Source of the DNA: Lentisphaerota bacterium
GTDB taxonomy: Bacteria; Verrucomicrobiota; Kiritimatiellia; UBA8416; JAUUYL01
Length of the DNA stretch: 64,000 nt
Assembly (NCBI GenBank): GCA_030590485.1
Contig: JAUUYL010000004.1
Span: forward strand, 7,878-71,877
Reading direction: 5' to 3'
Part shown: one piece after another, positions 28,776-47,300 of the stretch
Numbering within the stretch: position 1 is the stretch's first letter
How the letters are laid out: each line of letters begins with the position of its first letter
Translations under genes and position numbers: made by a program
The notes under the pieces: model-generated
Told to the model about the DNA's origin: nothing
Seen by the model: the letters and a program-made list of their open reading frames with translations, nothing else
Databases searched by the model: none

Positions 28776-29936
28776 CTAGTCGCCAATCTCTTCAGCGTCT
28801 GTATACGGCTCACTGCGACGACCTGCAGCAGCAAGCATCTTGCCTACAACGAATCCCGTCGCAATCGCGATAAGAATAGTAACAATAATACCTTTTGCCT
28901 GGGATACCTTCGATATATCTTCAACAAGGAACAGGGCTGCAACACCACCGAGCAGTCCCGGCAAGCCGTGAAGATGTAAAACACCGCATGTGTCGGCTTT
29001 TTTGAGCAGGCCTTCGAGCTTTGGCTGTATCACTGCGAAACTAAATGTGGATAGTGCGCCAGCGAGAATACCAATGGTGAACGCAGCCACTGGACCAACC
29101 TTGTCACAGGTGGAACCAATTGCCACACCACCAGCCAAAGCTGCATTGGCAATATCTGCAATAGAGAATTTCTTGCGGAGTGTTACGGATGCAAAGTAAG
29201 TTGCAAGAGTCGAACCGCAAAGTGCCAGGATCACATTAACCGCAGTGGCAGGAACATCTGCAGGTGCTACAAGCGCGCCACAGAAACTCGGCCAGAAAAC
29301 CCAAAGAACCATACTACCAAGCAAGGAGAACCGGTCGCTGGTCTCGTCTGATTCAATCTCAGTCTCAAACTCTTTCTTTGTGGTCATCGTCATGATCACA
29401 CCAAGCCCAAACAAAGCACCAAACGCATGAATTACGATAGAACCGCCTGTATCAACAAAGTTACCTTTTGTGATCAAACCAAGTCCACCGTCCAGAACCA
29501 ACCATTCATTAAACGCGTAACATGGAACAAAAAGAAGCCCCAGCAAGATATACTGTATCATCTTGAGCCGGCCCAAAGCCGCCCCGGCGCATATCAACAA
29601 ACTCGCCGCCGCAAATTCAGCAAGGATAACTCGATCAATCGCCGCCTCAGCACCACCCAGTATATGCAGTGAAGCTTTAAGGAAGTATAATGGCAGAGCC
29701 ACGCTCACGAGGAGGTATGTTGCAGTAACAGCAGAACGTCCGTACTTCTTTACGAACACCATCAGGAAGCCAAAACCCACGAGCAACATCGCCATGATGT
29801 GAATCGCCCTGTTGTATTTCTGGACGTCCGCCAGTGCGGAGATATCATCTTCCATCGCGGCGTAAGCCGGCGTGCAAAAACTCATTACAACTACAAATGC
29901 TATTCCCAACATCCACATAAACCGACTTACTCGCAT
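28776..29936 (-). CDS. Rh-type ammonium/gas channel (Amt/MEP/Rh superfamily)
   Basis: It has ~11 TM segments and the Rh-like motif GGSIVIHAFGALFGLGV. Length is 386 aa. Confidence 0.6.
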   Translation of the reverse strand: MRVSRFMWMLGIAFVVVMSFCTPAYAAMEDDISALADVQKYNRAIHIMAMLLVGFGFLMVFVKKYGRSAVTATYLLVSVALPLYFLKASLHILGGAEAAIDRVILAEFAAASLLICAGAALGRLKMIQYILLGLLFVPCYAFNEWLVLDGGLGLITKGNFVDTGGSIVIHAFGALFGLGVIMTMTTKKEFETEIESDETSDRFSLLGSMVLWVFWPSFCGALVAPADVPATAVNVILALCGSTLATYFASVTLRKKFSIADIANAALAGGVAIGSTCDKVGPVAAFTIGILAGALSTFSFAVIQPKLEGLLKKADTCGVLHLHGLPGLLGGVAALFLVEDISKVSQAKGIIVTILIAIATGFVVGKMLAAAGRRSEPYTDAEEIGD

Positions 29937-30091
29937 ACCTTCTGCCTTTCTTGGTTAATTATTTGCAAGGCATATTGCACAAACATTTGCGAGAGTACAA
30001 GCGTGAACGCGCAATGGGAACCTAAAGGAAAGAGATTTTCACCATCCGGCGTCCCCGCCTCAAGGGCCCGGAGGAAAGCTAAGGAGAGAAG

Positions 30092-30138
30092 AGAGCCTCA
30101 GATTGCTGAGTTTTTCAAACAGCGCAGCAATCTGAGGC
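30092..30138 (-). terminator. Intrinsic terminator-like hairpin downstream of the porin gene
   Basis: Perfect 16-bp inverted repeat gagcctcagattgctg...cagcaatctgaggctc. On the minus transcript it is followed by ucuucucuccuu. Confidence 0.5.
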
Positions 30139-30165
30139 TCCAGCCACACAAGGTGGCAGGGGCAA

Positions 30166-30873
30166 TTAAAACCCGACTTTAACACCGAGAGAGCCATATA
30201 CTTTTGTGTCGTACATTCCGCCGTCTTTGAGATCAGGCAAAACATCATCCTCGAGCTGGGCGACATACGTCACCGTAGCGCTGACGGCTTTGTAACTTAA
30301 GCCAGCCGATATATCAGCATGCGAGAAGCCGCTCTCACCTTCATCCGCCTCCAGATAGCCAACTGCAACAGAAACCGCAGCACCTACGTTTTTAGAGAGT
30401 TCAAGCTCATGCCCGAGACCAAGCTCTACGTAGATGGAGTCTTCTATGCCTCCGTATAGGCCGTAATTTACCGATAATGATGGTGCTAGCACTACATCCA
30501 GACCAGCGGCTAATGTTACCTCGTGATCGGAGTCCACACCGTCATTCGGATACGTATAAGCCGTATACCCAACAGACAAGTCAGCGGCCTCACAAGGAAT
30601 GTTGTATCCTGCGATTATATCCACCTCATTGAACTTATGCTGCTTCAGCGTGCCATTGTAATCGTCTATATCCAGGTTACCCCACACCCCCAGATCAAAG
30701 TCTGAAAGATGAAACATGCCACCATGCTGAAACACAAGCCCGTCATTCAAGGTAGCACCCCTGAACACATACGCGCTCGCGAGGTCAAATGTAGCGCTCG
30801 CCGTTATATCCTCCGCCATCCCTACGGAGGTAAAAACCCAAACCGCCATTATTAATATTGATACTTTTCTCAT
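30166..30873 (-). CDS. Putative outer-membrane beta-barrel porin encoded in the amtB-glnK operon
   Basis: Signal peptide MRKVSILIMAVWVFTSVGMA, alternating amphipathic beta-strand pattern, C-terminal F. Start is taken at M26 of the ORF. Confidence 0.5.
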   Translation of the reverse strand: MRKVSILIMAVWVFTSVGMAEDITASATFDLASAYVFRGATLNDGLVFQHGGMFHLSDFDLGVWGNLDIDDYNGTLKQHKFNEVDIIAGYNIPCEAADLSVGYTAYTYPNDGVDSDHEVTLAAGLDVVLAPSLSVNYGLYGGIEDSIYVELGLGHELELSKNVGAAVSVAVGYLEADEGESGFSHADISAGLSYKAVSATVTYVAQLEDDVLPDLKDGGMYDTKVYGSLGVKVGF

Positions 30874-30948
30874 TTCTATATTTCCTTCATTTTCCCGTCC
30901 AACCATTAGCCATTTAACCATCAACCATGGATGATTGGCGAGCGCCAA

Positions 30949-31290
30949 TCATCCTATGGAGTCATACCCTGTTTCACCCGTTCTGATTCTAACGCATTCC
31001 ACCAGATCCATGACAAATATTTTTCCGTCACCGATCTTTCCCGTCTTAGCCCCTTCGCAAATTGCGCCAATTGTCTTCTTGACGTACTCCTTGTTTACCG
31101 CGATTTCAAGCCTCACCTTCTTAAGCAGGTTCACCTCTATGTCTGTCCCGCGGTAACTCTCGTGATATCCCATCTGTTCTCCGCAACCTAATGCGTTTGT
31201 AACCGACATCTTATGTACATCATTCTCAAACAACGCCTTCTTTACTGCATTCAGTTTTTCCGGCTGTATATATGCTACTATCAATTTCAT
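30949..31290 (-). CDS. glnK: Nitrogen regulatory protein P-II
   Basis: [20 protein letters not shown]...T-loop [16 protein letters not shown]...[11 protein letters not shown]. The T-loop lacks the canonical Tyr51 (RGTDI). Confidence 0.85.
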
Positions 31291-31374
31291 CTCTTCTCCT
31301 CCCATTCTTGATCTTACTCTTAGTCCCCGAATCAAGTTCGGGATCACTGCTACGTAGCGACTTAATCCTCTACC

Positions 31375-32745
31375 TTACTGACTTGTAAAGATCTGAAATC
31401 CTGAATATGCTTCCATTCCATGTTCACCAATATCCAGCCCTTTAAGTTCTTCATCTTCACTGACCCTTATGCCAACTGTAGATTTGAGACCTTTGAAGAT
31501 AAGAAATGCCACAGGGAAACACACAACAGCATAACTGGCGATTCCGACAAGTTGAACGCCCAGAGATATTGTATAAGCATCTGCACCCTCTCCAACAACT
31601 GTTCCGTTTGCGAAGACACCAACAAACAATGTGCCTAAAATTCCACAGACAAGGTGCACAGTCGTCGCACCAACAGGATCATCTATCCTGATTCGGTCAA
31701 AAGTCATAACGGAAACCACTGCTATTGCACCGCAAATTAGACCTACGAGAACCGCGACTCTTACCGACAATATATCCGCACCTGCAGTGATTCCGACTAA
31801 GCCAGCAAGACAGCCATTCAGAACCATACTTAAGTCAGGCTTCTTCTGTATGGTCCAGGACGCGATCATTGCACCCATGATTCCGGCAGCCGCAGCAAGC
31901 GAGGTCGTGGTCAGCACGTACGGTACTGCAGTCGGATCAGCCGACAACACAGAGCCGCCATTAAAACCAAACCATCCCAACCAAAGCAGAAACGCTCCGA
32001 TGGTCAACAGAGGCATATTGTGCCCCATGATCGGCTTAACCGTGCCGTTGACATACTTTCCAAGCCTTGGACCCAGCAAGATAATACCGGCCAACGCCGC
32101 CCATCCGCCTACAGAGTGAACAAGAGTCGAGCCAGCAAAGTCATGAAAACCCATCTCGGCCAACCAACCGCCGCCCCACTTCCATGAACCCACAAATGGA
32201 TACACGAGCATTACGTATATAGCCGAGAAGATCAGAAATGGTCCCAATTTTATTCTTTCAGCAACCGCACCCGAAACGATTGTTGCCGAAGTGGCAGCAA
32301 ACATCCCCTGAAACAGGAAATCCGTCCAGTAACTGTAATTACCCCCTGCATAGGCAATTCCGCCCGCGGCACCTTCAGGGCAACTAAGTCCCATGCCTGC
32401 AAAACCAAGCACTTTGCCAAACAACCAACTGTCGCCCGGATACATCAAGTTGAAACCTATTAACGTATAAGTCAGCAACCCTATAGAGACAATTGCAGTA
32501 TTCTTAAAAAGAATATTCACCGTATTTTTCGCTCTGGTCAACCCTGACTCTACAGTGGCAAACCCGAGATGCATAATAAATACGAGAAAGATGGAAACCA
32601 TCATCCAAATATTATTAGCCGTATACAACGCAATATCTGCGGTCGAATACTCAACCGCCGCCTCTTCCGCCATCACTTCACCTGCCCCCGCAAGGAATGC
32701 CAAAGCAACCCCCGCCACTATCATGTACTTGAACCAAGTTTTCAT
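31375..32745 (-). CDS. amtB: Ammonium transporter
   Basis: Signal peptide MKTWFKYMIVAGVALAFLAGAGEVMA, Amt motif DFAGSTLVHSVGGWAALAG, and 11 TM segments. RBS aaggagtagg precedes ATG at 32745; the upstream 11 codons in the ORF track are rejected. Confidence 0.9.
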   Translation of the reverse strand: MKTWFKYMIVAGVALAFLAGAGEVMAEEAAVEYSTADIALYTANNIWMMVSIFLVFIMHLGFATVESGLTRAKNTVNILFKNTAIVSIGLLTYTLIGFNLMYPGDSWLFGKVLGFAGMGLSCPEGAAGGIAYAGGNYSYWTDFLFQGMFAATSATIVSGAVAERIKLGPFLIFSAIYVMLVYPFVGSWKWGGGWLAEMGFHDFAGSTLVHSVGGWAALAGIILLGPRLGKYVNGTVKPIMGHNMPLLTIGAFLLWLGWFGFNGGSVLSADPTAVPYVLTTTSLAAAAGIMGAMIASWTIQKKPDLSMVLNGCLAGLVGITAGADILSVRVAVLVGLICGAIAVVSVMTFDRIRIDDPVGATTVHLVCGILGTLFVGVFANGTVVGEGADAYTISLGVQLVGIASYAVVCFPVAFLIFKGLKSTVGIRVSEDEELKGLDIGEHGMEAYSGFQIFTSQ

Positions 32746-32792
32746 ACCTACTCCTTCCATTTGAGTGTTAAGGTTCATTGACAGGGGTTATC

Positions 32793-32808
32793 GCAACAAG
32801 CGTGCCAA
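32793..32808 (-). promoter_or_regulatory. Sigma-54 (-24/-12) promoter for amtB
   Basis: The minus strand reads TTGGCACGCTTGTTGC, which matches the TGGCAC-N5-TTGC consensus exactly. It sits ~45 bp upstream of the amtB start. Confidence 0.6.
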
Positions 32809-32957
32809 CTTTACATGAAAATTACGCCAATTTTTTAACACTCTGCATTCAAAGGTCTTACATCGAAAAAGATGGAGAGCGAGGACTCTTTGCGCTATAA
32901 ATTTTATACATTTTTGTAGTTGACATCTAAACGTAATACATTATTGTAAGTGGCGTT

Positions 32958-34520
32958 ATGAGCTCATCTCAAGATAAAGCCAAGAGTAATTCAAAGCGGT
33001 CGAAGCTGGAGCTGGATATCTTCTATAAGATATCGCAGGCGATGGCGCATCAGCATGAGATCCCCACTCTCCTTAATGAAGTGCTGGATATTATGGAGAC
33101 GGAGCTTGGCCTTTCACGGGGTACTCTAGCCTTAAGACAGCCGGACTCGGACATCTTTGAGATCAAGGCATCGCGAGGCCTCACATCTGCCGAAAGAAAG
33201 CGTGGTCAATACAATCTTGGTGAAGGAGTCACCGGCATAGTGGCGAAGACAGGCAAGCCCGCCACCATAGCTGACATCTCAAAGGATCCTAATTTTCTCG
33301 ATCGCACCAAATCAAGAAAGGATGCCCGCGTCGCGTTTCTTTGCGTACCCATCACCCATCTGCGCCAGGTTATAGGCACGATAAGCATTGATCGCCCAAT
33401 TACCAGTGATGACGAACTTAAGCGGGACATTAAATTTCTCAAACTCGTAGCTGACCTCCTTGCCGAATCGGTATCAAGCATCAGAGAGCAAATGGAGGAG
33501 AAGGAAAGCCTTACAGCGGAGAACCGCCTGCTCAGACAACAGCTTGGCGACAGATATCACCCGAGCAACATAATTGGTAACTGCGGTAGCATGCGCCAGG
33601 TTTACGAGCATATCGCGCAAGTCGCCGACAGCGCGGCAACGGTACTGATTCGAGGTGAGTCAGGAACAGGCAAAGAACTTGTGGCGCGCGCCATCCAGGC
33701 AATAAGCCCCCGAAAGAACAACGCATTCATCTGCGTCAACTGCGCTGCCCTTCCTGAAAACCTTATAGAAAGCGAACTTTTCGGCCACGAAAAAGGCGCG
33801 TTTACAGGCGCAATGAACCAGCGAAAAGGCCGATTCGAAATGGCCAACGGCGGGACACTGTTCCTTGACGAAATAGGCGACATCTCCCCAAGCGTTCAAG
33901 TGCGCCTTCTACGCGTTCTCCAGGAGCAGACTTTTGAGCGAGTCGGAAGCGACAAGACAACGACCGTTAACGTACGAGTGATTACGGCCACAAGTAGCAA
34001 TTTGGAAGAAGCCATCAGGGACGGCAAGTTCAGAGAGGATCTGTACTACAGGCTCAACGTGTTTCCTATCCACATCCCTTCGCTACGCGAAAGACGAGCC
34101 GACATAATGATGTTGGCCGATTACTTCATTCAGAAATATAACGAGCTTTACAATAAGAATATCAAGAGGATTTCGACTGCAGCAATCAATATGATGATGG
34201 CATATCACTGGCCGGGAAACGTCAGAGAGCTTGAGAACTGCATTGAGAGAGCTGTCCTTACATGTACGGATAATGTCATCCATGGCTACGCGCTACCACC
34301 TTCTCTACAGACAAGCGATGAGACAAATACTGAAGTCATGTCCGCAGAAGGTGCTAGTTTAAAAGCACTACTTGAATCATACGAGCGAGAGATAATTATC
34401 GATGCGTTGAAAAAGCATCGCGGTAATGCTACCGCCGTAGCAAAGGAACTGCATGCAACGCAGCGAGTGATCAATTACAGTATCAAGCTGCTTGCCATCA
34501 CCCCGCATAACTATAAATAG
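32958..34520 (+). CDS. Sigma-54-dependent transcriptional activator with N-terminal GAF domain (NifA-like architecture)
   Basis: GAF domain (residues ~20-180), AAA+ sigma-54 interaction module [15 protein letters not shown]...[16 protein letters not shown]-terminal Fis-type HTH. Confidence 0.85.
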
Positions 34521-34521
34521 T

Positions 34522-34547
34522 CTTTACGCTACCGCGTAAAGACTGGT
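34522..34547 (+). terminator. Hairpin immediately after the activator stop codon
   Basis: agtctttacgc-tacc-gcgtaaagact is an 11-bp perfect stem followed by T-rich sequence. Confidence 0.5.
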
Positions 34548-34584
34548 TATTAGTTATTGGGCTTAAGAATCAAAGACTTCACCA

Positions 34585-34692
34585 CCACACCGCCCTTCGC
34601 CTTGCCAGCCCTCCCGACTGGTCGGGGGCAGGCTGGGGCACCCCTCCGGAGGAGAGGAACAAGATTTAGAAGATCCCATCCTTGGAGGGGTC
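34585..34692 (+). repeat. GC-rich structured intergenic repeat, copy C (long form)
   Basis: cgcccttcgccttgccagccctcccgactggtcgggggcaggctggggcacccctccggaggagaggaa...agatcccatccttggaggggt. Confidence 0.7.
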
Positions 34693-34718
34693 CGCGCAGC
34701 GGGGGGTTGGTTGATACC

Positions 34719-35723
34719 CTACCGGAACTTACGAAGCACTTCTCGCGCGCTGATGAACGAGGCATAATCCTCGAGACCTGCCAGAGAATAAAATGACAGC
34801 CGAATTCCCAATTCCTTAGCTGCGGCCACAGCGTTCAAGCCGCCCGCGACAACCATGCCGCAATGCCCTTCCGAGACATTTATACCAAACAGCGGCTGAT
34901 TCGGCCGTCCGATAGCAAGAACTCCGCCAAGATTAAATTTTTTGATTCCTTTCACTATAGTCTTGATCTGATCAACCGCAGCAGTCGGGACCTCGCGAAA
35001 ACTGGCACATATTATTCCCGACCCCCGCAAAACAACATTTCTTACTCTGGTCATGTCGGCCCTGATAAAGATTTCAAGCGGGTCAAGCGTCGATCCACCA
35101 TACTCTATCATATTGACAAATCGAGTCATTCGTCGTTCCTTGATTTCCAGTAACCCTCCGAAGCGCGAAACAACAGGCACTCCCGCCTTCTGCAAAATAC
35201 CATTTAGCGTAAGACTACAAACAGTTCCAATGGCAGTAAACCCCTCAGGCACAATCATCCCTCCGAGCTCCTCGCCCGACTCCGCGACAGCCATCATATT
35301 CCCCATAACCAGATCCTGCGCAGCAACAAGCTGTATTTCCCTCACAATCCTTCCAACCTCAGCCGGATCGACCAAAGCTATATTGACAATTACGCTTCCC
35401 TCACCTTTCTCAGCATCCAGGGTCATTCGATATGCAAGCGTATCAACCTTTGCAGAGACTATTCCTACACGCGACACATGATCATCCGACGTCAACAGCT
35501 CCTGACGCCCCTTCTCCGTTATCTCTCTCCCCATTCTCCGACTGACAAGGCGCGTAAACCCACCGTCATCCAACTGCATAAGATAATGGCGAACCGTCCG
35601 AGGCTGAAGATCTACGCCCTCAGCCAAAAGCAAAGCCGCAATCTGCGATGCCCCAATCGGCCTCATCGTATCATTCAACGCCCTCAGAATCCCCATACGC
35701 GCACGATCAGCTCTCTCCGCCAT
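34719..35723 (-). CDS. Winged-helix regulator, possibly an NrpR-like (archaeal-type nitrogen repressor, DUF128) protein
   Basis: N-terminal wHTH (GILRALNDTMRPIGASQIAALLLAEG...RTVRHYLMQLDDGGFT...GREITEKG) plus a ~230-aa C-terminal domain. It sits between the nitrogen activator and gdhA. The family assignment is from memory. Confidence 0.35.
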   Translation of the reverse strand: MAERADRARMGILRALNDTMRPIGASQIAALLLAEGVDLQPRTVRHYLMQLDDGGFTRLVSRRMGREITEKGRQELLTSDDHVSRVGIVSAKVDTLAYRMTLDAEKGEGSVIVNIALVDPAEVGRIVREIQLVAAQDLVMGNMMAVAESGEELGGMIVPEGFTAIGTVCSLTLNGILQKAGVPVVSRFGGLLEIKERRMTRFVNMIEYGGSTLDPLEIFIRADMTRVRNVVLRGSGIICASFREVPTAAVDQIKTIVKGIKKFNLGGVLAIGRPNQPLFGINVSEGHCGMVVAGGLNAVAAAKELGIRLSFYSLAGLEDYASFISAREVLRKFR

Positions 35724-35894
35724 TTCTAAAACCTCCGCTTTATCTTACCGCTTCAATGAAAAGAAAACACCATTTCTACCGCATTCAACCGAATCAATGA
35801 TAAGTCTTGGACAAAACTATTAACGGCAATATTGCCGTTTAAATGTGCCTCTATATTGCATCATTGCGGTTGCATGTCAACGTTATTGGGGTAG

Positions 35895-37292
<1,398 letters not shown>

Positions 37293-37316
37293 GGCTGTTT
37301 AAAAGCAATTAGAAAG

Positions 37317-37353
37317 CGGCCCTGTATCACTACGATCAGGGCCGTTTTTCTTT
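37317..37353 (+). terminator. Rho-independent terminator of gdhA
   Basis: cggccctg-tatcactacgat-cagggccg followed by tttttcttt. Confidence 0.6.
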
Positions 37354-37482
37354 ATAGACTTCAAATTTAACATTAATCTGTTCAAGACGCTTGCATAGCG
37401 GCAACAATTTTGACAGATTGACTCTGCTGTCAGCAAATTACTGACATCCACTACAAATATTCTTAACCTTAAGGAGAACAAA

Positions 37483-38895
37483 ATGGGCGGTTTCTTCGGC
37501 GTAACTTCAAAAGACGACTGTGTTAATGATTTATTTTTCGGCACAGACTACCAGTCACATCTGGGCACGCAACGTGGTGGGCTTGCTGTAATCGACGGCG
37601 ACGAATTCACTCGGTTCATTCACGACATCCGCAACGCACAATTTCGTTCAAAGTTTGATGATGACATCAAAAAAATGAACGGCCCATCAGGAATCGGCGT
37701 CATCAGCGATTTCGAAGATCAACCCATTATGGTCAATTCACATCTTGGCCAGTATGCCATCGTCACAGTGGGCGTCATACAAAACGCCGAAGAGCTTGTC
37801 GCAAAGGCTTTCAAGAGAAAACATACACATTTCGCGGAAATGGGCGGCGGCTACGTCAACCCGACAGAAATAGTTTCCACCCTTATAAACGAAGAAAACT
37901 CTTTCGAAGCAGGTCTTGAAAGCGCTCAGGAACAGATCGAGGGCTCATGCTCCATCCTCCTCTTATGCAAAGACGGCATATATGCCGCTCGCGACAGATT
38001 GGGACGTACCCCTATCGTTATTGGCCGAAAAGAGGATTCTTATTGCGCCGCTACGGAAAACTGCTCGTTCCCAAATCTTGATTACGAAATAGAGAAGGAT
38101 CTTGGGCCTGGCGAAATAGTCCTGATGACCTCGCAAGGAATCGAGCAAAAGAAAGCTCCAAACGAAAAAATGCAGATATGCTCCTTCCTTTGGGTTTACT
38201 ACGGATATCCATCATCATCCTATGAAGGCATAAACGTTGAAAACGTCAGATATAGATGTGGAGCCGCACTCGCCAAGAACGACGCTCACACGGTCGACAA
38301 GGTGGCCGGCATACCAGATTCGGGAACAGCACATGCTATCGGATATGCCAACGAAGCAAAAGTTCCATACATGAGACCTTTCGTTAAGTACACACCAACA
38401 TGGCCTCGTAGTTTCATGCCGCAAAATCAGGAAATAAGAAATCTAGTCGCACGCATGAAGCTTATCCCAATCAAGGAATTGATCAAGGGTCACAGCATTG
38501 CATTCTGCGAAGACTCGATTGTACGCGGTACTCAGCTACAGGATATCGTGCAGAGGGTATTCGATTACGGAGCGAAAGAATTTCATATGCGCCCCGCCTG
38601 CCCGCCCCTGGTCTACGGTTGCAAATACCTGAATTTCTCAAGATCTAGATCAATACTGGATCTAGCAACAAGAAAAGCCATGAAGGAAATCGAAGGGACA
38701 GAGTATCCTGACAATCATGCGGAATACGCTGATTTCAATTCAGACAAATATGCGGAGATGATAGAAAGTATCCGCAAGCGCCTGAAACTGTCTTCTCTGC
38801 AATTCCAAAAACTTCCTGACCTTGTTGAGGCTATTGGCCTGCCAAAAGAAAAGCTCTGTACATACTGCTGGGACGGATGCGATGGCTGTAATTAG
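37483..38895 (+). CDS. Amidophosphoribosyltransferase (PurF) paralog lacking the N-terminal catalytic cysteine
   Basis: The Ntn class-II amidotransferase fold aligns with PurF (LFFGTDYQSHLGTQRGGLAVIDG) but begins MGGFFGV instead of MCG. PRPP-binding motif CEDSIVRGTQ. Strong RBS aaggagaacaaaATG. Confidence 0.65.
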   Translation: MGGFFGVTSKDDCVNDLFFGTDYQSHLGTQRGGLAVIDGDEFTRFIHDIRNAQFRSKFDDDIKKMNGPSGIGVISDFEDQPIMVNSHLGQYAIVTVGVIQNAEELVAKAFKRKHTHFAEMGGGYVNPTEIVSTLINEENSFEAGLESAQEQIEGSCSILLLCKDGIYAARDRLGRTPIVIGRKEDSYCAATENCSFPNLDYEIEKDLGPGEIVLMTSQGIEQKKAPNEKMQICSFLWVYYGYPSSSYEGINVENVRYRCGAALAKNDAHTVDKVAGIPDSGTAHAIGYANEAKVPYMRPFVKYTPTWPRSFMPQNQEIRNLVARMKLIPIKELIKGHSIAFCEDSIVRGTQLQDIVQRVFDYGAKEFHMRPACPPLVYGCKYLNFSRSRSILDLATRKAMKEIEGTEYPDNHAEYADFNSDKYAEMIESIRKRLKLSSLQFQKLPDLVEAIGLPKEKLCTYCWDGCDGCN

Positions 38896-38898
38896 ACG

Positions 38899-39753
38899 AT
38901 GAATAGAATTATAGAGACAACTCAGCTTTCGGACGATGTTTTTAAACTCATAGTTGACGCTCCCCTCATCGCGGAGGAGCGCAAACCTGGTCAGTTCATC
39001 ATCCTTCAAATCCATGACGATGGTGAGCGTATTCCGCTTACAATCGCGGATGGCAACAGCAAAAAAGGTACCATCACCCTGATATTCCAGGCTGTTGGCA
39101 GATCCACTCATATGCTCGCAAACTTTAAAGTGGGAGATGAGATTGCTCATCTACTCGGACCGCTCGGGACGCCCACACATATTGAGAAATTCGGACATGT
39201 AGTCTGCGTCGGCGGCGGGATTGGTGTCGCGCCAATGCATCCCATCGCTCAAGGAATGAAAGTGGCAGGAAACAAGGTGACAATCATCATGGGTGCCAGG
39301 AACAAGGAACTGATGGTTCTCGAGGACGAAATGCGTACCATAGCAGATGACCTGATTATCTGCACGGACGACGGCTCGCACGGCCGCAAATGTCTGGTCA
39401 CGGAACCGCTGAAGGAACTCTGCGAAAACGATCCGAAGCCCGATCTGGCTGTTGCCATAGGACCACCTATCATGATGAAGTTCTGCGCCGAGACGACCAG
39501 ACCTTACGAGGTCCACACGCTCGTATCACTAAACACTATAATGATAGACGGAACAGGAATGTGCGGCGGATGCAGAGTCTCTGTTGGCGGAAAAACTAAG
39601 TTCGTATGCGTAGACGGTCCGGAATTCGACGGACACAAAGTGGATTTTGATAACATGATGCTTCGACTCGGTGCTTACAAAAAGCGCGAAGCGGACGATC
39701 ATCACAAATGCCACATAGAGCTTGGAATAGATTGGACTGCGGACAAAGGATAG
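38899..39753 (+). CDS. nfnA: PyrK/NfnA-like FAD/NAD(P)-binding ferredoxin reductase subunit with C-terminal [2Fe-2S]
   Basis: FNR-like fold and C-terminal cluster motif GTGMCGGCRV...C. It is translationally coupled to the downstream GltD-like gene. Confidence 0.65.
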   Translation: MNRIIETTQLSDDVFKLIVDAPLIAEERKPGQFIILQIHDDGERIPLTIADGNSKKGTITLIFQAVGRSTHMLANFKVGDEIAHLLGPLGTPTHIEKFGHVVCVGGGIGVAPMHPIAQGMKVAGNKVTIIMGARNKELMVLEDEMRTIADDLIICTDDGSHGRKCLVTEPLKELCENDPKPDLAVAIGPPIMMKFCAETTRPYEVHTLVSLNTIMIDGTGMCGGCRVSVGGKTKFVCVDGPEFDGHKVDFDNMMLRLGAYKKREADDHHKCHIELGIDWTADKG

Positions 39754-41229
39754 ATGGATTATCACTTAATGAACGACGAAGCAAAGAAACAACTTGCCAA
39801 TATTGATTCACGCGAAGAACCGCTGAAGCCCAAAGACCGCATTGCGATTCCAACGCAGGAAATGCCAACGCAAGACCCGATTGAGCGAGGTAAAGATTTC
39901 ACCGAGGTTGCCACTGGCTACACTGCAGAACAGGCACAACTGGAGTCTATCCGATGCCTGCAATGTAAAACGGCACCATGTATAGCTGGCTGCCCGGTCG
40001 GAATCAACATCCCCGGCTTTCTCAAGGCTGCATCCGAAGGCAATTTCGAAAAATCTGTCCAAATCATAAAAGAAAGCAGTCTCCTTCCCGCAATATGCGG
40101 CAGAGTCTGTCCGCAGGAAACCCAGTGCCAGGAGCCATGCACAGTAGGTAAAGCACTTAAAGACGTCGAGCAGGCTGTCTCCATAGGACGCGTTGAACGA
40201 TATGTAGCTGACCTCGAACGTGACAATGGTATCGTAACCCCTGCCGTGAAATCGAAAACAGGCAAAAAAGTAGCTGTAATAGGAAGCGGTCCAGCGGGAC
40301 TCGTGGTGGCAGCAGACGTCCGACGAGAAGGTCATGACGTAACAATCCTGGAAGCATTCCACAAACCCGGTGGTGTCATGGTTTATGGCATTCCTGAATT
40401 CAGATTACCCAAGGCTATTGTTCAGACAGAAATCGACACCCTCATAGCTATGGGCGTGGAACTTAAAACCGATTTCGTAGTCGGACGCACCCGCAAACTC
40501 AAGGACCTGATCGAAAAAGACGGTTACGATGCTGTCTTCGTCGCAACAGGTGCAGGGTTGCCAAGATTCATGAATATCGAAGGCGAGAATCTTGTCGGAG
40601 TCTTTTCCGCAAATGAATATCTGACACGCGCAAATCTTATGAAAGCATACGACCGTGAAAACGCAGATACACCCATCATACAATCACGGAAGGTTGCTGT
40701 CCTGGGAGGCGGAAATGTTGCCATGGATTCTGCTCGCACCGCATTACGTCTTGGCGCAGAAGAAGTTCATATCGTTTACAGGCGCACGGAAAAAGAAATG
40801 CCCGCGCGAGTCGAAGAAGTTCACCACGCACAAGAGGAAGGCATCGTTTTCCATCTTCTAGAGAACGCAAAAAGCATACTTGGGGACGATCAGGGCCTCG
40901 TGACCGGCATGGAATGTCTGCGTTACGAGCTGGGCGCGCCGGACGAGTCCGGGCGACGCCGCCCCGTTGTTATCGAAGGAAGCGAATTTATTATGGATGT
41001 TGATACAGTAATTGTCGCTATCGGCAACGACTCGAATCCGCTCATCAAGCAGACCACCCCAGAAATCGAATGCAATAAATGGGGGAACATCATTGTCGAC
41101 GACACCGGAAAGACATCCATGGATTGCGTCTACGCAGGTGGCGACATCGTTCTGGGGGCGGCAACTGTAATCCTCGCTATGGGCGAAGGACGCAGAGCCG
41201 CAGCATCGATCAACGCATTGCTTGCGTAA
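39754..41229 (+). CDS. nfnB: GltD-like NADPH-dependent oxidoreductase (NfnB / glutamate synthase small-subunit family)
   Basis: N-terminal 2x[4Fe-4S] CLQCKTAPCIAGCP...CPQETQCQEPC, FAD/NADPH Rossmann motifs VAVIGSGPAGL and VAVLGGGNVAMD. Confidence 0.75.
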   Translation: MDYHLMNDEAKKQLANIDSREEPLKPKDRIAIPTQEMPTQDPIERGKDFTEVATGYTAEQAQLESIRCLQCKTAPCIAGCPVGINIPGFLKAASEGNFEKSVQIIKESSLLPAICGRVCPQETQCQEPCTVGKALKDVEQAVSIGRVERYVADLERDNGIVTPAVKSKTGKKVAVIGSGPAGLVVAADVRREGHDVTILEAFHKPGGVMVYGIPEFRLPKAIVQTEIDTLIAMGVELKTDFVVGRTRKLKDLIEKDGYDAVFVATGAGLPRFMNIEGENLVGVFSANEYLTRANLMKAYDRENADTPIIQSRKVAVLGGGNVAMDSARTALRLGAEEVHIVYRRTEKEMPARVEEVHHAQEEGIVFHLLENAKSILGDDQGLVTGMECLRYELGAPDESGRRRPVVIEGSEFIMDVDTVIVAIGNDSNPLIKQTTPEIECNKWGNIIVDDTGKTSMDCVYAGGDIVLGAATVILAMGEGRRAAASINALLA

Positions 41230-41346
41230 GAACAAACACCATTCCTTGCACTCAGCCATAAGCCATTCTAATCCGAAGGATCGTGCCGTATCAAAAACCT
41301 CTTTTGACACGCGGATCAATAACTACTGCTTTTGTTAGAAGCAGGC

Positions 41347-41718
41347 TTACCTGGCAATATCTTTATCGCCTTCCCACTTATCTTTAAATCTGATGCCTAC
41401 AGCATCTACCTGTGTTAGCGTCCTGGTAAAAAGAATGAAGAACTGTGTGCAATTTTCCACGGTTATCTCTATTAACGCATCCGCCCCGACATTTTCTTTG
41501 GCCTTTTTAATAGCATCTCTTGTTGAGTTACCTTTTGTAACTGGAATAAGGCCTAAAATTGCGAATCGACTGTCCGCAGCCGATGTAGGGCCAATCACAT
41601 TATACGATTTAGCATGTAGCGGTGTATTTGACGCGGCTATACCACCCGGATAAGAAGCGCATCCGGCCAACATAGCACTCATTATGATCACTAATAACAA
41701 ACCAATGTATTTGCTCAT
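41347..41718 (-). CDS. Small lipoprotein (TRL-like family candidate)
   Basis: Signal peptide with lipobox MSKYIGLLLVIIMSAMLAGC. ~100-aa mature domain. Confidence 0.4.
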   Translation of the reverse strand: MSKYIGLLLVIIMSAMLAGCASYPGGIAASNTPLHAKSYNVIGPTSAADSRFAILGLIPVTKGNSTRDAIKKAKENVGADALIEITVENCTQFFILFTRTLTQVDAVGIRFKDKWEGDKDIAR

Positions 41719-41837
41719 AACATATCCTCCTTTATAAGAACTTTAGATAATCAATAAATACTATAACATCTAAAAAATAGCAATTAAGAACTGAAGTGTT
41801 TATTAACTGACAGGAATTTGCCTGCCATGTAGCGTGT

Positions 41838-41938
41838 TTCGCAGGCGGCGACATAGTATTAGGCACCTCAACGGTGATTCTCGCTATGGGCGAAGGCCGC
41901 AGAGCAACAGCCTCGATCAACACATTACTTGCGGAATA
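41838..41938 (+). pseudogene. Remnant 3' fragment of a gltD/nfnB-like gene
   Basis: It translates to FAGGDIVLGTSTVILAMGEGRRATASINTLLAE*, against the real NfnB C-terminus YAGGDIVLGAATVILAMGEGRRAAASINALLA* at 41140-41229. Identity is ~85% at the nucleotide level, and the fragment lacks the upstream body. Confidence 0.55.
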
Positions 41939-42002
41939 GCAAACTGAAATCGTTTTCAGTACAGCCGCCATGTAATGGCGGCTATACTTTTGGACAGCGC
42001 GA

Positions 42003-44120
42003 CTACATCATAAACATCATTTCTGAATACGACGGCAATGGCCGGAGTTCGTCAGAAAGCATGCCTTCAATATTATCAGCGGCTTCGCGCAGCACTAACA
42101 TAGCCTTAAGCTTGTCGGAAGGCTTGCCCTTCTTGATTACAGCTTCAAGCTTGCTTGTGGCTTTCAACAGCTTTTCTGTTTCGGCTACAACCGCAGTGAA
42201 CAGCTTTTTACTCTCAGGTATATTCTTTACACCAACAGCCTTTACCGCGCCTAGGATGTCAGCAAGCTCACCCTGGTACTCTAACACAGCTGGAGCTATC
42301 ATTGTCTTTGCGATTCTGACAGCACATTGAGCTTCGATAGCAATAGTCTCCTCGTAAATCTCGCTGTAAATCTCATAGCGCGCTTCAAGCTCTCTCTTGC
42401 TCAGCACGTTGAATTTCTCAAAAAGCGTTATGGTTTTTTTAGATATTATCTGCTTCAAGGCTTCATCTGTTGTTTTCAGGTTAGGTAGCCCCCTACGTTC
42501 CGCTTCTTTATGCCAGTCTTGCGAATAATTATCGCCCTCAAACAACACTCTTTTGTGCTTCTTAACGATACCTTGCAGAACCTTCTGCAACGCATCGTTA
42601 AACTTTACCTTCTTCGACAACATCCCCTCTACCGCCGTGCAAATATCATCCAGTGCCTCGGTAACAATTGTGTTCAGCACTACGTTTGCGCCAGCGCAAC
42701 TCTGACTGGAGCCCACTGCCCGGAACTCAAACTTGTTTCCTGTAAAAGCAAATGGTGATGTTCTGTTGCGGTCAGTAGCATCGCGAGGCAGGGAAGGAAG
42801 AGATGACACACCGATTTCGATTGTTCCTCCATTCTTAGAGCTTTTAGCCCCACCCTTTTCTACCTGCCGTATCACGTCATGCAGCTGTTCCCCAAGAAAT
42901 ATCGACATAATCGCTGGAGGCGCCTCATTAGCGCCTAGCCTGTGATCATTGCCTGCGGTCGCTACAGACGCACGAAGCAATCCAGCATGAGTATCAACAG
43001 CCTTAATGACCGCACATATTACTGTAAGGAATCGTGCGTTATCATGAGGATTATCTCCAGGCTTGAGCCAATTCTTACCATCCGGGCCATTCACATTCCA
43101 GTTGTTGTGTTTACCGGATCCATTTACGCCCGCGAATGGTTTTTCATGAAGCAGGCAGGCAAAGTTATGTCTCTCGGCTACATCTTCAATAACCTCCATC
43201 ATTAGCATGTTGTGATCTACGGCCAGGTTAAGCTCCTCATATACGGGCGCCAACTCAAATTGCCCCGGACAGACTTCGTTATGCCTGGTCTTCGCCGGCA
43301 CGCCAAGACGCCACATCTCCCTATCGAGCTCACACATGAACGCTACTACCCTGCTCTTTATCACCCCGAAATAATGATCATCCATCTGTTGGTGCTTAGC
43401 AGGAATCTTTCCGAACAAAGTCCGCCCAGTCTGAAGCAGATCGGGCCGCATCTCATACAATTCTCTATCAATGAGGAAATACTCCTGTTCAGCGCCAAGC
43501 GAGGCCGTTGTCTTCCGCCCATTGACTTTGACACCAAACAATTTTGCTAACCGGCAGAACTGCTCTGACAGAGCATCGCCTGAACGCAACAATGGCGTCT
43601 TTTTATCCAAAGCTTCTCCATTGTATCCGCAGAACACAGTTGGTATGCACAGTGTTGCGCCATTTTCACCTTCACGAATGAATGCCGGACTGGTTGGATC
43701 CCACGCTGTATACCCGCGCGCCTCAAAAGTTGCGCGCAAACCGCCTGATGGGAAACTCGACGCATCCGGCTCACCCTGGATCAATTCCTTCCCCGAAAAC
43801 TTATAGACTGCGCCATCATTCCCATCCGGAGTCACAAAGGAGTCATGCTTTTCAGCTGTAGAGCCTGTCAACGGCTGAAACCAGTGTGTGAAATGCGTAG
43901 CGCCCTTCTCCAACGCCCAAGTCTTCATAGCCTCTGCCACGTCATCAGCAATCTCCGGATTTAGGGTTTTCCCTTTGCGGACTGTTGACACTAAAGACTT
44001 GTAAACCGTTGCCGACAGATACTTCCGCATCGTCTTTATGCTGAAAACATTCTCGCCAAAGAATTTAACAATATCATCAGTCTTTTTCTTTTTAGTATTT
44101 CCTGAAGTCTTTCGAGGCAT
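42003..44120 (-). CDS. glnN: Glutamine synthetase type III
   Basis: 705 aa with GS catalytic-domain motifs and the characteristic GSIII N- and C-terminal extensions. Confidence 0.85.
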
Positions 44121-44333: not shown

Positions 44334-47300
44334 TTGGTTGAGAATAGTAAAAATGGTTCGGTACTCATTTTGGGTGCAGGTATCGCTGGAATACAGGCGG
44401 CGCTGGATCTTGCCGACTCCGGCTATAAGGTATACCTGGTCGAATCCAAAACCGCTATCGGCGGTCATATGGCACAGCTTGATAAGACATTCCCCACTAA
44501 CGACTGCGCAATGTGCACAATCTCACCTCGTCTCGTAACCGCTGGCCTGCATAGAAACATTGAGATTATCACAAACGCCGAACTGCAAGAACTCAAGGGT
44601 GAAGCTGGTAATTTCGAAGCAACAATACGTCTCAACCCTAATTTTGTAGATCTCGACAAATGTACAGGCTGCGGTCTCTGTGCAGAGGAATGTCCTATTA
44701 ATATCCCTGACGAATACAACCAGGGACTGAACAACAGAAAAGCCATTTACAAATTATACCCGCAAGCCGTACCAAACAAATTCACTATCAGCAAACTGGG
44801 CGAAGCACCATGCTACGACGCGTGCCCTCTTCACGGAGACCCCAGCGGCTATGTCGCACTGACCGCTGAAGGCCGCTATCAGGAAGCTCTGGATCTTGTC
44901 AGAGAAAAGAACCCCTTCCCCGCTATCTGCGGCAGAATATGTCAACATCCATGCGAAACAGAATGCAGCCGATGCAAAGTCGATGAGCCCGTTTCCATCG
45001 CATACATAAAACGATTTCTGGCTGACTGGGAAATGGGTCATGGCGAAGAGAAAACACCCGCCGCTGAAATAATTGAAAATGGAAAGAAAGTCGCCATCAT
45101 CGGGTCAGGTCCCGCAGGACTTACCGCCGCACGCGAGCTTAGGAAAATGGGCTATTCTCCCGCAATTTACGAGTCTCGCGCAAAAGCCGGCGGCATGATG
45201 ACTCTCGGCATCCCCTCGTACCGCCTACCGCACGAGATTATAGAAAAGGAAATAAAAGACATTACCGATCTGGGTGTAACCCTTAAAATCAATTCACCGA
45301 TTAATTCCGAAGAAGACATCGAAGCTCTCTTTAAGGATGGATGCGAAGCCGTCTTCCTCAGTGTAGGCTCCCACCAAAGCAGAAGCATGGATATTGAGGG
45401 CGAAGACCTTGAAAACGTTACGGACGGTGTTACCTTTCTGCGCGAACTAAGCCTTGGATCAATAACTTCAGTCAAAGAACGAGTTATTGTTGTAGGAGGA
45501 GGCAACGTAGCACTCGACTGCGCGCGCTCCGCCCTGCGTCTTGGTGCCAAGGCTGTAAATATCGTTTGCCTGGAAGCTTACGAGAACATGCCTGCGCACC
45601 GCAACGAGATTGACTGGGCGGAAGAAGAAGGCATCGTCGTCAACGCCGCAAAGGCGACACAAAGCATTACAGATAAAAACAACGCCTTTGCCGGGTTGGC
45701 ATTGATGGATGTAAAGAAAATGGCGTTCGTAGAAGGAAAACTCGAGCTAGAGACTGAGCCGGGTTCAGAATCAACAATTGAAGCCGACCAGATGATTGTA
45801 GCCATCGGCCAGGCACCTGACCTCTACTTCCTCTCCGATGACAGCAAAATCAACACCACCCCACGGGGTACTCTGGATGTGGACAGCAAAAGCTTTATGA
45901 CATCCTGGAAAGGCGTATTCTCAGGAGGCGATGTAGTGCGTGGAGCGGCAAGCGTTATCGAGGCCGTTGCAGACGGCAGAAATGCAGCCATGTCGATAGA
46001 CGCCTATATCAAGGGCGAAGAATTTACTCCAGACGCAAGCAATCAGCCGATTGTAACGCTATCAGACGAAGAAATTAGAGCAAAACTGAAAAGTAAGGAA
46101 ATACAAAAGACGCCTCGTCACATCATGCCAGAACGCCCAGTCGAAGAACGTATTTCAAACTTTAGCGAAGTAGATCTCGGGTTGAGCGAGGAAGCCGCAA
46201 AGAAGGAAGCCGAACGCTGTCTCTATTGCTCTATCTGCTCCAACTGCCGAAGATGCGAAACAGTATGCGAAGCTAACGCGCTCATCTATGATGACGTTCC
46301 TAAGAACAGAACAATCAATCCGGGCGCAGTTATCCTCGCCCCTGGTTTCGAACTGTTTGATTCGGGCAAAAAAGGAGAATTTGGCTACAAACGATTTCCA
46401 AATGTCATTTCCGCTCTGGATTATGAACGCATACTCAGTGCGTCCGGCCCTACACTTGGTCATATACAGAGAATCTCCGACAGCAAGACGCCTCGGAACA
46501 TAGCCTTCATTCAGTGTGTGGGATCAAGAGACGAAGACAACCCATATTGTTCATCCGTTTGCTGCACCTTTGCAATAAAACAATCCATCATTACAAGAGA
46601 GCATGCGAAGGACACACAATGCACCATTTTCGCGATGGACATCCGTGCCTTTGGTAAGGGCTTTGATGAGTATTTCGAGCGTGCAAAAAACAACTACGGC
46701 GTCAAAGTTGTATACACACGCCCATCGTCGATTAAACAGGATTTCAAAACCCACAATCTTCAGCTGCAATTCACCGAAGATGGTCAAGACTGGATCGAAC
46801 AGGAATTCGATCTGGTCGTTCTCTCAGCTGGCTTATGCCAGAATGACAAGGCCAAAGAAATCGCAAATGTCTGTGAAATCGACCTGAACGACTACTCGTT
46901 CGCCAATTCACCCGTCTTTTCGCCAACATCGACCAACCGCGAAGGTGTATATCTCGCCGGAACATTTGAGGAGCCGAAAGACATTCCGGAATCAGTGACC
47001 CACGCAAGTGCAGCCGCAGCGAGGGCAATGGAACTGCTTGCCGATGTCAGAGGCACTGAAGTAGAAGAAAAAGTTTATCCAAAAGAAAGAGACGTATCAC
47101 AGGAAGAACAACGCATAGGCGTCTTTGTATGTCACTGTGGATCAAACATCGAGGGATTCATCAGTTGCAAAGAAGTAGCCGAGTACGCTCAAAGCCTCAA
47201 AAACGTAGTATACACAGACCATCTTCTCTACAGTTGCTCTCCAGACGGACTGCAAACCATTAAAGATATGGTGATAGAGCATAACCTCAACCGTGTGGTT

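Follow-up and report, generated by a model that had tools for sequence, protein, structure and literature searches.

A divergent NrpR-family regulator and gdhA in a Lentisphaerota bacterium: conserved paired palindromes and a proposed 2-oxoglutarate-responsive circuit

Introduction

NrpR is a nitrogen regulator that, to our knowledge, has been characterised only in archaea. Here we describe an NrpR-family gene, the glutamate dehydrogenase gene gdhA that diverges from it and the candidate operators lying between them, in a 64,000-nucleotide stretch of contig JAUUYL010000004.1 (hereafter the window) from a Lentisphaerota bacterium. Archaeal cells short of nitrogen accumulate 2-oxoglutarate, which frees NrpR from its operators; the nif promoter of Methanococcus maripaludis carries two of these (PMC9765008, PMC11957540, PMC4902934).

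The closest described systems differ in their make-up. The M. maripaludis protein, which represses nif, glnA and amtB, belongs to the same family as that of the window and likewise joins a winged helix to the NrpR regulatory domain, but it reportedly has two regulatory domains whereas the window protein has one. NrpRI of Methanosarcina mazei is said to share the simpler arrangement of one winged helix and one regulatory domain, and several bacterial relatives are labelled 'global nitrogen regulator NrpRI' by JGI. However, NrpRI works with the archaeal basal transcription machinery and at a different operator. Moreover, it is described as pairing with NrpRII, which lacks the helix-turn-helix (HTH) (Weidenbach 2010); we saw no NrpRII-like gene beside bacterial nrpR.

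Among bacterial regulators that sense 2-oxoglutarate or act on gdhA, transcription of ammonium assimilation genes is tied to nitrogen status by Nac/NtrC in enterics, AmtR in Corynebacterium, NtcA in cyanobacteria (which senses 2-oxoglutarate directly) and TnrA/GlnR in Bacillus. The circuit proposed here would share this logic, but these regulators belong to unrelated families (LysR, TetR, CRP and MerR types), use other operators and none has an NrpR regulatory domain. As far as we know, nitrogen control is largely uncharted in Verrucomicrobiota, Lentisphaerota, Kiritimatiellota and their relatives, which are abundant in gut, freshwater, sediment and soil. In 2007 bacterial homologues of NrpR were known solely in Dehalococcoides and were attributed to lateral transfer (PMC1852104). 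Apart from that remark, our search of the literature on bacterial NrpR returned archaeal work only; we found nothing treating bacteria of the Planctomycetes-Verrucomicrobia-Chlamydiae (PVC) group and no description of an NrpR-gdhA circuit.

Results and Discussion

Identity and distribution of the NrpR-family protein

The original prediction, made from the DNA letters alone, had suggested an NrpR-like regulator at 34719-35723 (Table 1). The product is a genuine NrpR-family transcription factor in a PVC-group bacterium. Its match to PF01995, the profile of the NrpR regulatory domain (COG1693), scores 252.7 bits against a cut-off of 25, with E 3.7e-75, and takes in positions 1-236 of the 238 in the profile; residues 11-76 match the N-terminal winged-helix profile PF08461 (E 3.5e-13). 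Only one relative has a solved structure, MJ0159 of Methanocaldococcus jannaschii (PDB 3NEK), to which the window protein shows similarity at E 8.3e-27 and 29% identity. An AlphaFold (AF2) model built on 25 homologues reached a pLDDT of 89.7, and Foldseek superposed it on 3nek_B with E 1.5e-20, a TM score (target) of 0.89 and an rmsd of 2.5 Å; the two therefore share the regulatory-domain fold. However, the crystallised chain (238 residues) is the regulatory domain alone, whereas the window protein adds a winged helix in front of it, in which the model (residues 2-68) has a beta-hairpin wing and three helices. All of 25 bacterial sequences share C169, which aligns with a Cys of MJ0159 (motif TVCS/TICA). 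In M. maripaludis NrpR, a Cys in the region aligned to C169 reportedly matters for the response to 2-oxoglutarate.

Relatives of this protein are widespread. A scan of one genome per species with an alignment-based query identified them in at least 264 species genomes, a prior single-protein query having given no match, and more than 1,400 NrpR relatives were among the candidates scored in the protein database. The nearest protein among the species genomes is 60% identical, and thus the species of the window itself is absent from the genomes scanned; metagenome contigs encode proteins that are 78-96% identical. Looking up the exact window protein among assemblies gave no record. The presence of both a sigma-54 activator and an NrpR in one bacterium had been singled out as unusual. 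Both are real, but given the number of species genomes with NrpR relatives the combination is not exceptional, and a GAF/sigma-54 activator also neighbours nrpR in several related loci.

For comparison we took the loci of the best 80 of the 264 genomes, with up to 10 kb either side of nrpR (1.09 Mb in total). Almost all are of PVC type (mostly Kiritimatiellae, Lentisphaerae and Verrucomicrobiota), with one Chitinivibrionales and one Syntrophaceae. In 66 of these 80 loci gdhA is the immediate divergent neighbour of nrpR, as judged by tblastn with the window proteins; for about six of the remaining 14 the contig ends too near nrpR to judge linkage.

A conserved palindrome between nrpR and gdhA

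The nrpR-gdhA spacer of the window holds a perfect 18-bp palindrome, AACGGCAATATTGCCGTT, at the candidate operator O1 (ACGGCA-N4-TGCCGT). This pattern, allowing at most 2 mismatches, is found in 63 of 67 nrpR-gdhA spacers (window included), and 32 are exact. Across the comparative set there are 35 exact copies, in 34 of 80 loci, every one of them just 5′ of nrpR, against an expectation of ~0.07 in 1.09 Mb. A position weight matrix (PWM) built from the other genomes, without the window, gives the window O1 29.8 of a maximum 33.4 bits. Of the 74 sites scoring at least 14 bits with this matrix, 70 lie within 520 nt 5′ of nrpR, and three of the four stray sites fall inside nrpR ORFs (open reading frames). 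Moreover, in the close relatives (67-84% NrpR identity) O1 is invariant in 4/4 while its flanks have diverged. The distance from O1 to gdhA is constrained, with a median of 123 nt and an interquartile range of 114-141, measured to the codon that matches residue 19 of the window GdhA. That from O1 to nrpR varies from -2 to 438 nt.

Since a terminator scan flags a 7-bp hairpin with a T-rich tail at 35839-35822 on the minus strand, O1 could be taken for an RNA hairpin or intrinsic terminator. However, both flanking genes point away from it and nothing ends there. The arms ACGGCA/TGCCGT are conserved, with no compensatory changes, across genomes whose NrpR proteins are 44-60% identical, and a second related site occurs at phased distances (see below). 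We therefore give this explanation hardly any weight.

Two further features were seen in this part of the loci. In the window, two copies of TACCGCwTTCAA lie ~32 nt apart at 35749-35795, in the nrpR leader or promoter region. In a Spartobacteria locus (L027, 450-500), two exact O1-type sites stand 35 nt apart 5′ of nrpR together with an O2-like site, and this locus may have three operators.

A second, helically phased site at the gdhA promoter

When the spacers are aligned on O1 and read towards gdhA, a second site, O2, emerges with the consensus ACGGCw-N6-TdCCGTAt. Across loci it follows a TATAyT-like -10 hexamer without a gap, and its far end lies ~20-45 nt short of the gdhA start codon. In this position it would cover the transcription start. 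With at most 2 mismatches O2 is present in 46 of 63 spacers, compared with 2.6 of 63 in shuffles. No promoter element stands at a fixed distance from O1 in spacers anchored on that site; such elements appear only when the spacers are anchored on O2. In the window, O2 has 1 mismatch to ACGGC-N9-CCGTA and lies 76 bp centre-to-centre from O1, which is the modal spacing class. In the four close relatives the -35 and -10 hexamers are conserved and O2 is partly conserved, whilst the flanks have diverged.

The distances between the centres of O1 and O2 fall into classes of 75-78 bp (27 cases), 85-89 bp (12), 97-99 bp (3) and 105-108 bp (3), and are phased at a 10.5-bp period (Rayleigh p ~3e-13). Because the sequences are related, we repeated the test with one value per NrpR cluster, which gave p 5e-8 at 70% identity (n=25) and p 0.004 at 60% (n=11). 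Whole-turn spacing suggests that a single protein assembly occupies both sites on one face of the helix, either cooperatively or by looping.

The 'ATG' at 35898 that opens the mechanical gdhA ORF belongs to O2. The gene most likely starts at the ATG at 35952, which is preceded by the ribosome-binding site (RBS) AGGAGG; gene callers give its orthologues in relatives 446 aa. Between O2 and the RBS the gdhA leader contains a 19-nt palindrome, ATTGTGAATGGTTCACAAT (35916-35934). The two closest relatives retain it, the loop being 4 or 5 nt long, which favours an RNA hairpin over a protein-binding site; more distant loci lack it.

The motif follows nrpR

The palindromes could in principle be bound by another regulator of gdhA, with NrpR controlling unlinked targets. 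Binding of O1 and O2 by NrpR rests on comparison, gdhA and nrpR are nearly always together so that most loci cannot separate them, and the operator is unlike the archaeal NrpR box. However, the loci in which the pair is split keep the motif with nrpR. In L076 the two genes are 9 kb apart; a site lies 75 nt upstream of nrpR, whereas gdhA has none. In three other loci (L044, 6837-8705; L050, 2334-4088; L068, 673-2289) nrpR is divergent from a PF01645 gene and the site is between them. In L081 (4048-5766) the site separates nrpR from a gene for glutamine-dependent NAD synthetase. L074 has a pair of nrpR paralogues that face each other across such sites. The PF01645 partners encode ~540-620-aa proteins with a Cys-rich N-terminus and a glutamate synthase FMN domain; one further gene of this type (L122, 1736-3409) has a site 5′ of it with no nrpR nearby. 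Therefore the motif follows nrpR, and its other apparent targets, namely the Glu_synthase-domain genes and the NAD synthetase, are also nitrogen enzymes. The stray PWM sites, mostly inside nrpR ORFs, likewise argue against a different binder. Moreover, the half-site centres of O1 are 10 bp apart, as they are in the palindromic archaeal operator GGAA-N6-TTCC, a geometry that would fit a winged-helix dimer. Taken together, these comparisons point to NrpR as the protein that binds O1 and O2, and we consider another binder improbable.

We also searched metagenomes for the exact 18-mer TACGGCAATATTGCCGTA. Of the 77 stretches recovered, only 11 are flanked by nrpR and/or gdhA. About 42 of the 77 come from one coding sequence of one human-gut organism, repeatedly sampled, and we regard these as chance. 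This conserved sequence (...ELALAYGNIAVAAVLL...), seen in L083, L085, L087 and ~40 further metagenome loci, inflates raw counts. The others are miscellaneous; the search contributed L122 but no wider regulon emerged.

A proposed circuit and its polarity

We consider it probable that NrpR represses the divergent gdhA through O1 and O2 and that 2-oxoglutarate releases it. According to this proposal, NrpR oligomers would bind the two sites cooperatively on the same helix face, as a DNA loop or a dimer of dimers. The centre of O1 lies ~70 bp 5′ of the point where gdhA transcription is predicted to start, and O2 would cover that point, so that bound NrpR would occlude the sigma-70-type promoter and repress gdhA. 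Depending on spacing, NrpR would repress its own gene too. By analogy with archaeal NrpR, the repressor would be released by 2-oxoglutarate, which is both a substrate of glutamate dehydrogenase (GDH) and a signal of nitrogen need, and GDH would thus be made when its own substrate accumulates. The neighbouring NfnAB-like enzyme could plausibly supply NADPH to the NADP-dependent GDH.

Compared with M. maripaludis, such a circuit would share nitrogen-assimilation targets, a pair of operators at one promoter, located on or beyond its core element, and, as the expected effector, 2-oxoglutarate (PMC9765008, PMC4902934, PMC11957540). It would differ in its bacterial host, in acting on a sigma-70-type rather than a TATA/BRE promoter, in having gdhA rather than nif or glnA as the main target, and in helically phased operators, one of them ~76-107 bp upstream of the other.

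Several observations weigh against this proposal. Our literature search found no binding or expression experiment for any bacterial NrpR. The archaeal operator sequence is missing from the window, as set out below, and that of the window differs from it. The hexamers of the gdhA promoter are predicted, not mapped. The O2 of the window is a weak palindrome whose half-sites are 2 bp wider apart than those of O1. Three nrpR homologues located in mid-contig (L024, L064 and L069) have neither gdhA nor the motif nearby. Lastly, in Methylacidiphilum fumariolicum SolV gdhA mRNA is ~2.4-fold lower in N2-fixing than in ammonium-grown cells (RPKM 182 vs 436 and 500; PMC3404531), a trend opposite to simple derepression by 2-oxoglutarate, although it is confounded by growth mode. 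A related metagenome-assembled genome (L053) has the nrpR-O1-gdhA arrangement, which SolV itself may share.

The SolV data would be better accommodated if the same components worked with the other polarity, either with 2-oxoglutarate (or glutamine/glutamate) as a co-repressor or with NrpR activating from O1. Then gdhA would be on in nitrogen excess and off under limitation, as for enteric gdhA. The position of O1, centred near -70, is compatible with activation, and a low-affinity GDH is usually favoured in ammonium excess. However, O2 abuts the -10 hexamer and its cover of the transcription start is a repressor position, every NrpR protein that has been characterised acts as a repressor and is freed by 2-oxoglutarate, and the SolV difference is modest as well as confounded and comes from a different species. 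We therefore regard a reversed polarity as rather unlikely, if far from negligible. Both the identity of 2-oxoglutarate as the ligand and the direction of the response are proposed by analogy, and the polarity is the weakest step of the model; repression of gdhA is itself a presumed effect.

A further alternative was implied by the original prediction, which had suggested looking for GGAA-N6-TTCC operators at glnN, gdhA and amtB: a repressor in the style of methanogens, acting globally on the whole island. Membership of the NrpR family and the clustering of nitrogen genes would be in keeping with it. However, GGAA-N6-TTCC has zero matches in the 64-kb window, and no O1-type site of at least 8 bits occurs in the window 5′ of glnN, amtB, the Rh channel gene or the PurF-like gene. 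Moreover, amtB has its own sigma-54 promoter and activator, an arrangement conserved in L160. A global repressor of this kind is therefore very improbable. In the window NrpR probably targets gdhA and its own gene, and glnN and amtB appear to lie outside its control. A 16.3-bit O1-type site inside the PurF-like ORF (37971-37990) is most likely a coding coincidence; the orthologue in L062 has a similar intragenic site and both encode D-G-x-x-A-A.

A separate sigma-54 circuit at amtB-glnK-porin

The predicted sigma-54 promoter and divergent activator of amtB were both borne out. The element TGGCACGCTTGTTGC at 32807-32793 on the minus strand is the sole zero-mismatch TGGCAC-N5-TTGC in 64 kb, and L160 carries the identical promoter 16-mer 43 nt 5′ of amt, again beside a GAF activator and nrpR. 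A scan of the window gave no convincing sigma-54 promoter at glnN, gdhA or Rh. The amtB gene likely starts at the ATG at 32745, with the RBS GGAAGGAG 5′ of it and a signal peptide 3′, because the ORF start at 32778 would leave a sigma-54 leader of only ~3 nt.

The activator adjoins this promoter and, like NifA-type GAF enhancer-binding proteins, has GAF, AAA+ and HTH_8 domains. TIGR01817 (NifA) is its best-scoring model. However, its 500.1 bits are under the cut-off of 528.85, and it is not filed as NifA; moreover, the window has no nif genes and the apparent target of the activator is amtB-glnK-porin. Between amtB and the activator gene, ~90-155 nt 5′ of the -24 element, are two 21-nt direct repeats that we tentatively regard as an enhancer (upstream activating sequence) for the activator. 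They overlap a sigma-70-like promoter of the activator gene and show no recognisable conservation in L160. Thus amtB-glnK-porin would be under separate control, and the island appears to carry two separate regulatory circuits.

Other genes of the nitrogen island

All gene calls of the original prediction between 28776 and 44120 were recovered in the ORF list and in Pfam and NCBIfam profile scans (Table 1), the mechanical ORF starts of several genes being too far 5′. On the minus strand the order of transcription is Amt, P-II, porin, a 229-nt gap and the Rh channel. The claim that a Rh-type channel accompanies a classical Amt is firm by sequence: the Rh ORF matches the Rh50 protein of Nitrosomonas europaea (NeRh50, PDB 3b9w) at E 1.8e-109 (369.6 bits) and human RhAG/RhCG at E 1e-48 (RhAG 169 bits), compared with E 4e-08 (36 bits) for E. 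coli AmtB. In contrast, the terminator proposed between the porin and Rh genes is not convincing; the hairpin there is only 5 bp long and the coding strand has no T-run. The porin scores 28.9 bits against TIGR02001, under the cut-off.

The true start of glnK is probably the ATG at ~31290. As predicted, its P-II protein lacks the Tyr51 uridylylation residue; position 51 is Ile in the T-loop YRGTDI when aligned to E. coli GlnK/GlnB. P-II proteins without Tyr51 are common outside Proteobacteria and this is unremarkable.

An intrinsic terminator follows gdhA, which is therefore monocistronic in the window; in the relative L158 nfnA-nfnB lie directly 3′ of gdhA. The PurF paralogue stays below the TIGR01134 cut-off and lacks the N-terminal catalytic Cys. 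Its N-terminus reads MGGFFGV, with Gly in place of the class-II amidotransferase Cys1, and this Gly at position 2 is kept in 5 orthologues from other PVC loci. It retains the phosphoribosyl pyrophosphate (PRPP) loop (EDSIVRGT) and the Fe-S cysteines, recurs near gdhA/nrpR in L062, L065, L070 and L076, and might be ammonia-dependent or regulatory.

Both NfnAB-like subunits resemble solved NfnAB in sequence and are predicted to form such an enzyme; NfnB matches 4ylf_B of Thermotoga maritima NfnAB at E 4.3e-154 and 5jca_L at E 1.5e-141. A 32-codon fragment at 41838-41933 shares 84% identity with residues 460-491, at the C-terminal end of NfnB. It lies ~600 nt 3′ of the intact gene, past a small lipoprotein gene (41347-41718, minus strand), and looks like a remnant of duplication or rearrangement. 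The glnN product has both the N- and C-terminal domains specific to glutamine synthetase type III. Divergent from glnN is a 1486-aa multi-domain flavin/Fe-S oxidoreductase (44334-48794) with three pyridine-nucleotide-disulphide modules, several 4Fe-4S domains and one GltD/NfnB-like module (44805-46010, 37% identity to NfnB); it is not a GltB large subunit. Elsewhere in the window, ribose-5-phosphate isomerase B (PF02502) and serine hydroxymethyltransferase (PF00464) are joined in one 567-aa ORF (21157-22860).

Table 1. Features of the nitrogen island and of the nrpR-gdhA spacer, in window coordinates.
Feature	Position	Strand	Evidence or remark
Rh50-type ammonia/ammonium channel with signal peptide	28776-29936	-	PF00909 E 5.8e-49
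Gcw_chp/TorF-family outer-membrane porin	30166-30948	-	PF09694 E 9.9e-12; likely start ~30873
P-II (GlnK-like) signal protein	30949-31347	-	PF00543 E 4.2e-24, match begins at ORF residue 20
Amt-type ammonium transporter	31375-32778	-	PF00909 E 6.5e-112; TIGR00836 398 bits (cut-off 343)
Sigma-54 (-24/-12) promoter of amtB-glnK-porin	32792-32807	-	TGGCACGCTTGTTGCG
Two 21-nt direct repeats, 30 nt apart	32898-32948		each with TACA-N4-TGTA; repeat search
GAF + sigma-54 AAA+ + HTH_8 enhancer-binding protein	32958-34520	+	PF00158 E 1.4e-73, PF01590 E 2e-12, PF02954 E 2.8e-05
Hairpin terminator, bidirectional, where the activator and nrpR genes converge	34518-34545	both	12-bp stem
NrpR-family regulator, 334 residues	34719-35723	-	winged helix, residues 11-76; one NrpR regulatory domain, residues 86-323
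Candidate operator O1	35823-35838 (extended 35821-35840)		ACGGCAATATTGCCGT; perfect palindrome ACGGCA-N4-TGCCGT
Predicted sigma-70-type gdhA promoter	35870-35897	+	-35 TTGCAT (35870-35875), 16-nt spacer, -10 TAGTAT (35892-35897)
Candidate operator O2	35898-35915		ATGGCTAGTAGCAACCGT; ATGGCT-N6-AACCGT, of ACGGCw-N6-TdCCGT type
gdhA ribosome-binding site	35941-35946	+	AGGAGG
gdhA start codon (most likely)	35952-35954	+	ATG
NADP-specific glutamate dehydrogenase, gdhA	35952-37292 (mechanical ORF from 35898)	+	NF006929 774 bits, match begins at ORF residue 19
Intrinsic terminator 3′ of gdhA	37317-37353	+	CGGCCCTG, 12-nt loop, CAGGGCCG, then TTTTTCTTT; read from sequence
PurF paralogue	37483-38895	+	TIGR01134 191.7 bits (cut-off 350); 1ao0 E 8e-43
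NfnA-like FAD/NAD + [2Fe-2S] subunit	38899-39753	+	NF004862 406 bits (cut-off 220)
NfnB/GltA-like NADPH, FAD, 2x[4Fe-4S] subunit	39754-41229	+	TIGR01316 610 bits (cut-off 472)
Glutamine synthetase type III (glnN)	42003-44120	-	PF12437 E 6.6e-79, PF18318 E 5e-43, PF00120 E 6e-17

Conclusions

In summary, the NrpR family is widespread in PVC bacteria, where a two-operator architecture is conserved and gdhA is the apparent main target. The proposed circuit is defined in terms of a named protein, two operators, a target promoter and a likely small-molecule effector, and it recurs in at least 60 species-level genomes. We think it an even call whether, in general, PVC bacteria and some others (Chitinivibrionales, Syntrophaceae) use an NrpR-family looping repressor dedicated to NADP-GDH, a GltB-like FMN protein and glutamine-dependent NadE, acting at phased two-operator sigma-70 promoters with its own recognition sequence. 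If so, these bacteria would control nitrogen through a circuit that differs from NtrBC, GlnR/TnrA, AmtR and NtcA, and a single family of transcription factors would, unusually, serve the same function with both the archaeal and the bacterial transcription machinery. The operator motif is already usable for regulon annotation in PVC genomes. Moreover, the finding would turn NrpR, an 'archaeal' repressor until now, into a family that spans the two domains, and would provide a natural setting in which to study the adaptation of one repressor family to archaeal and to bacterial promoters.

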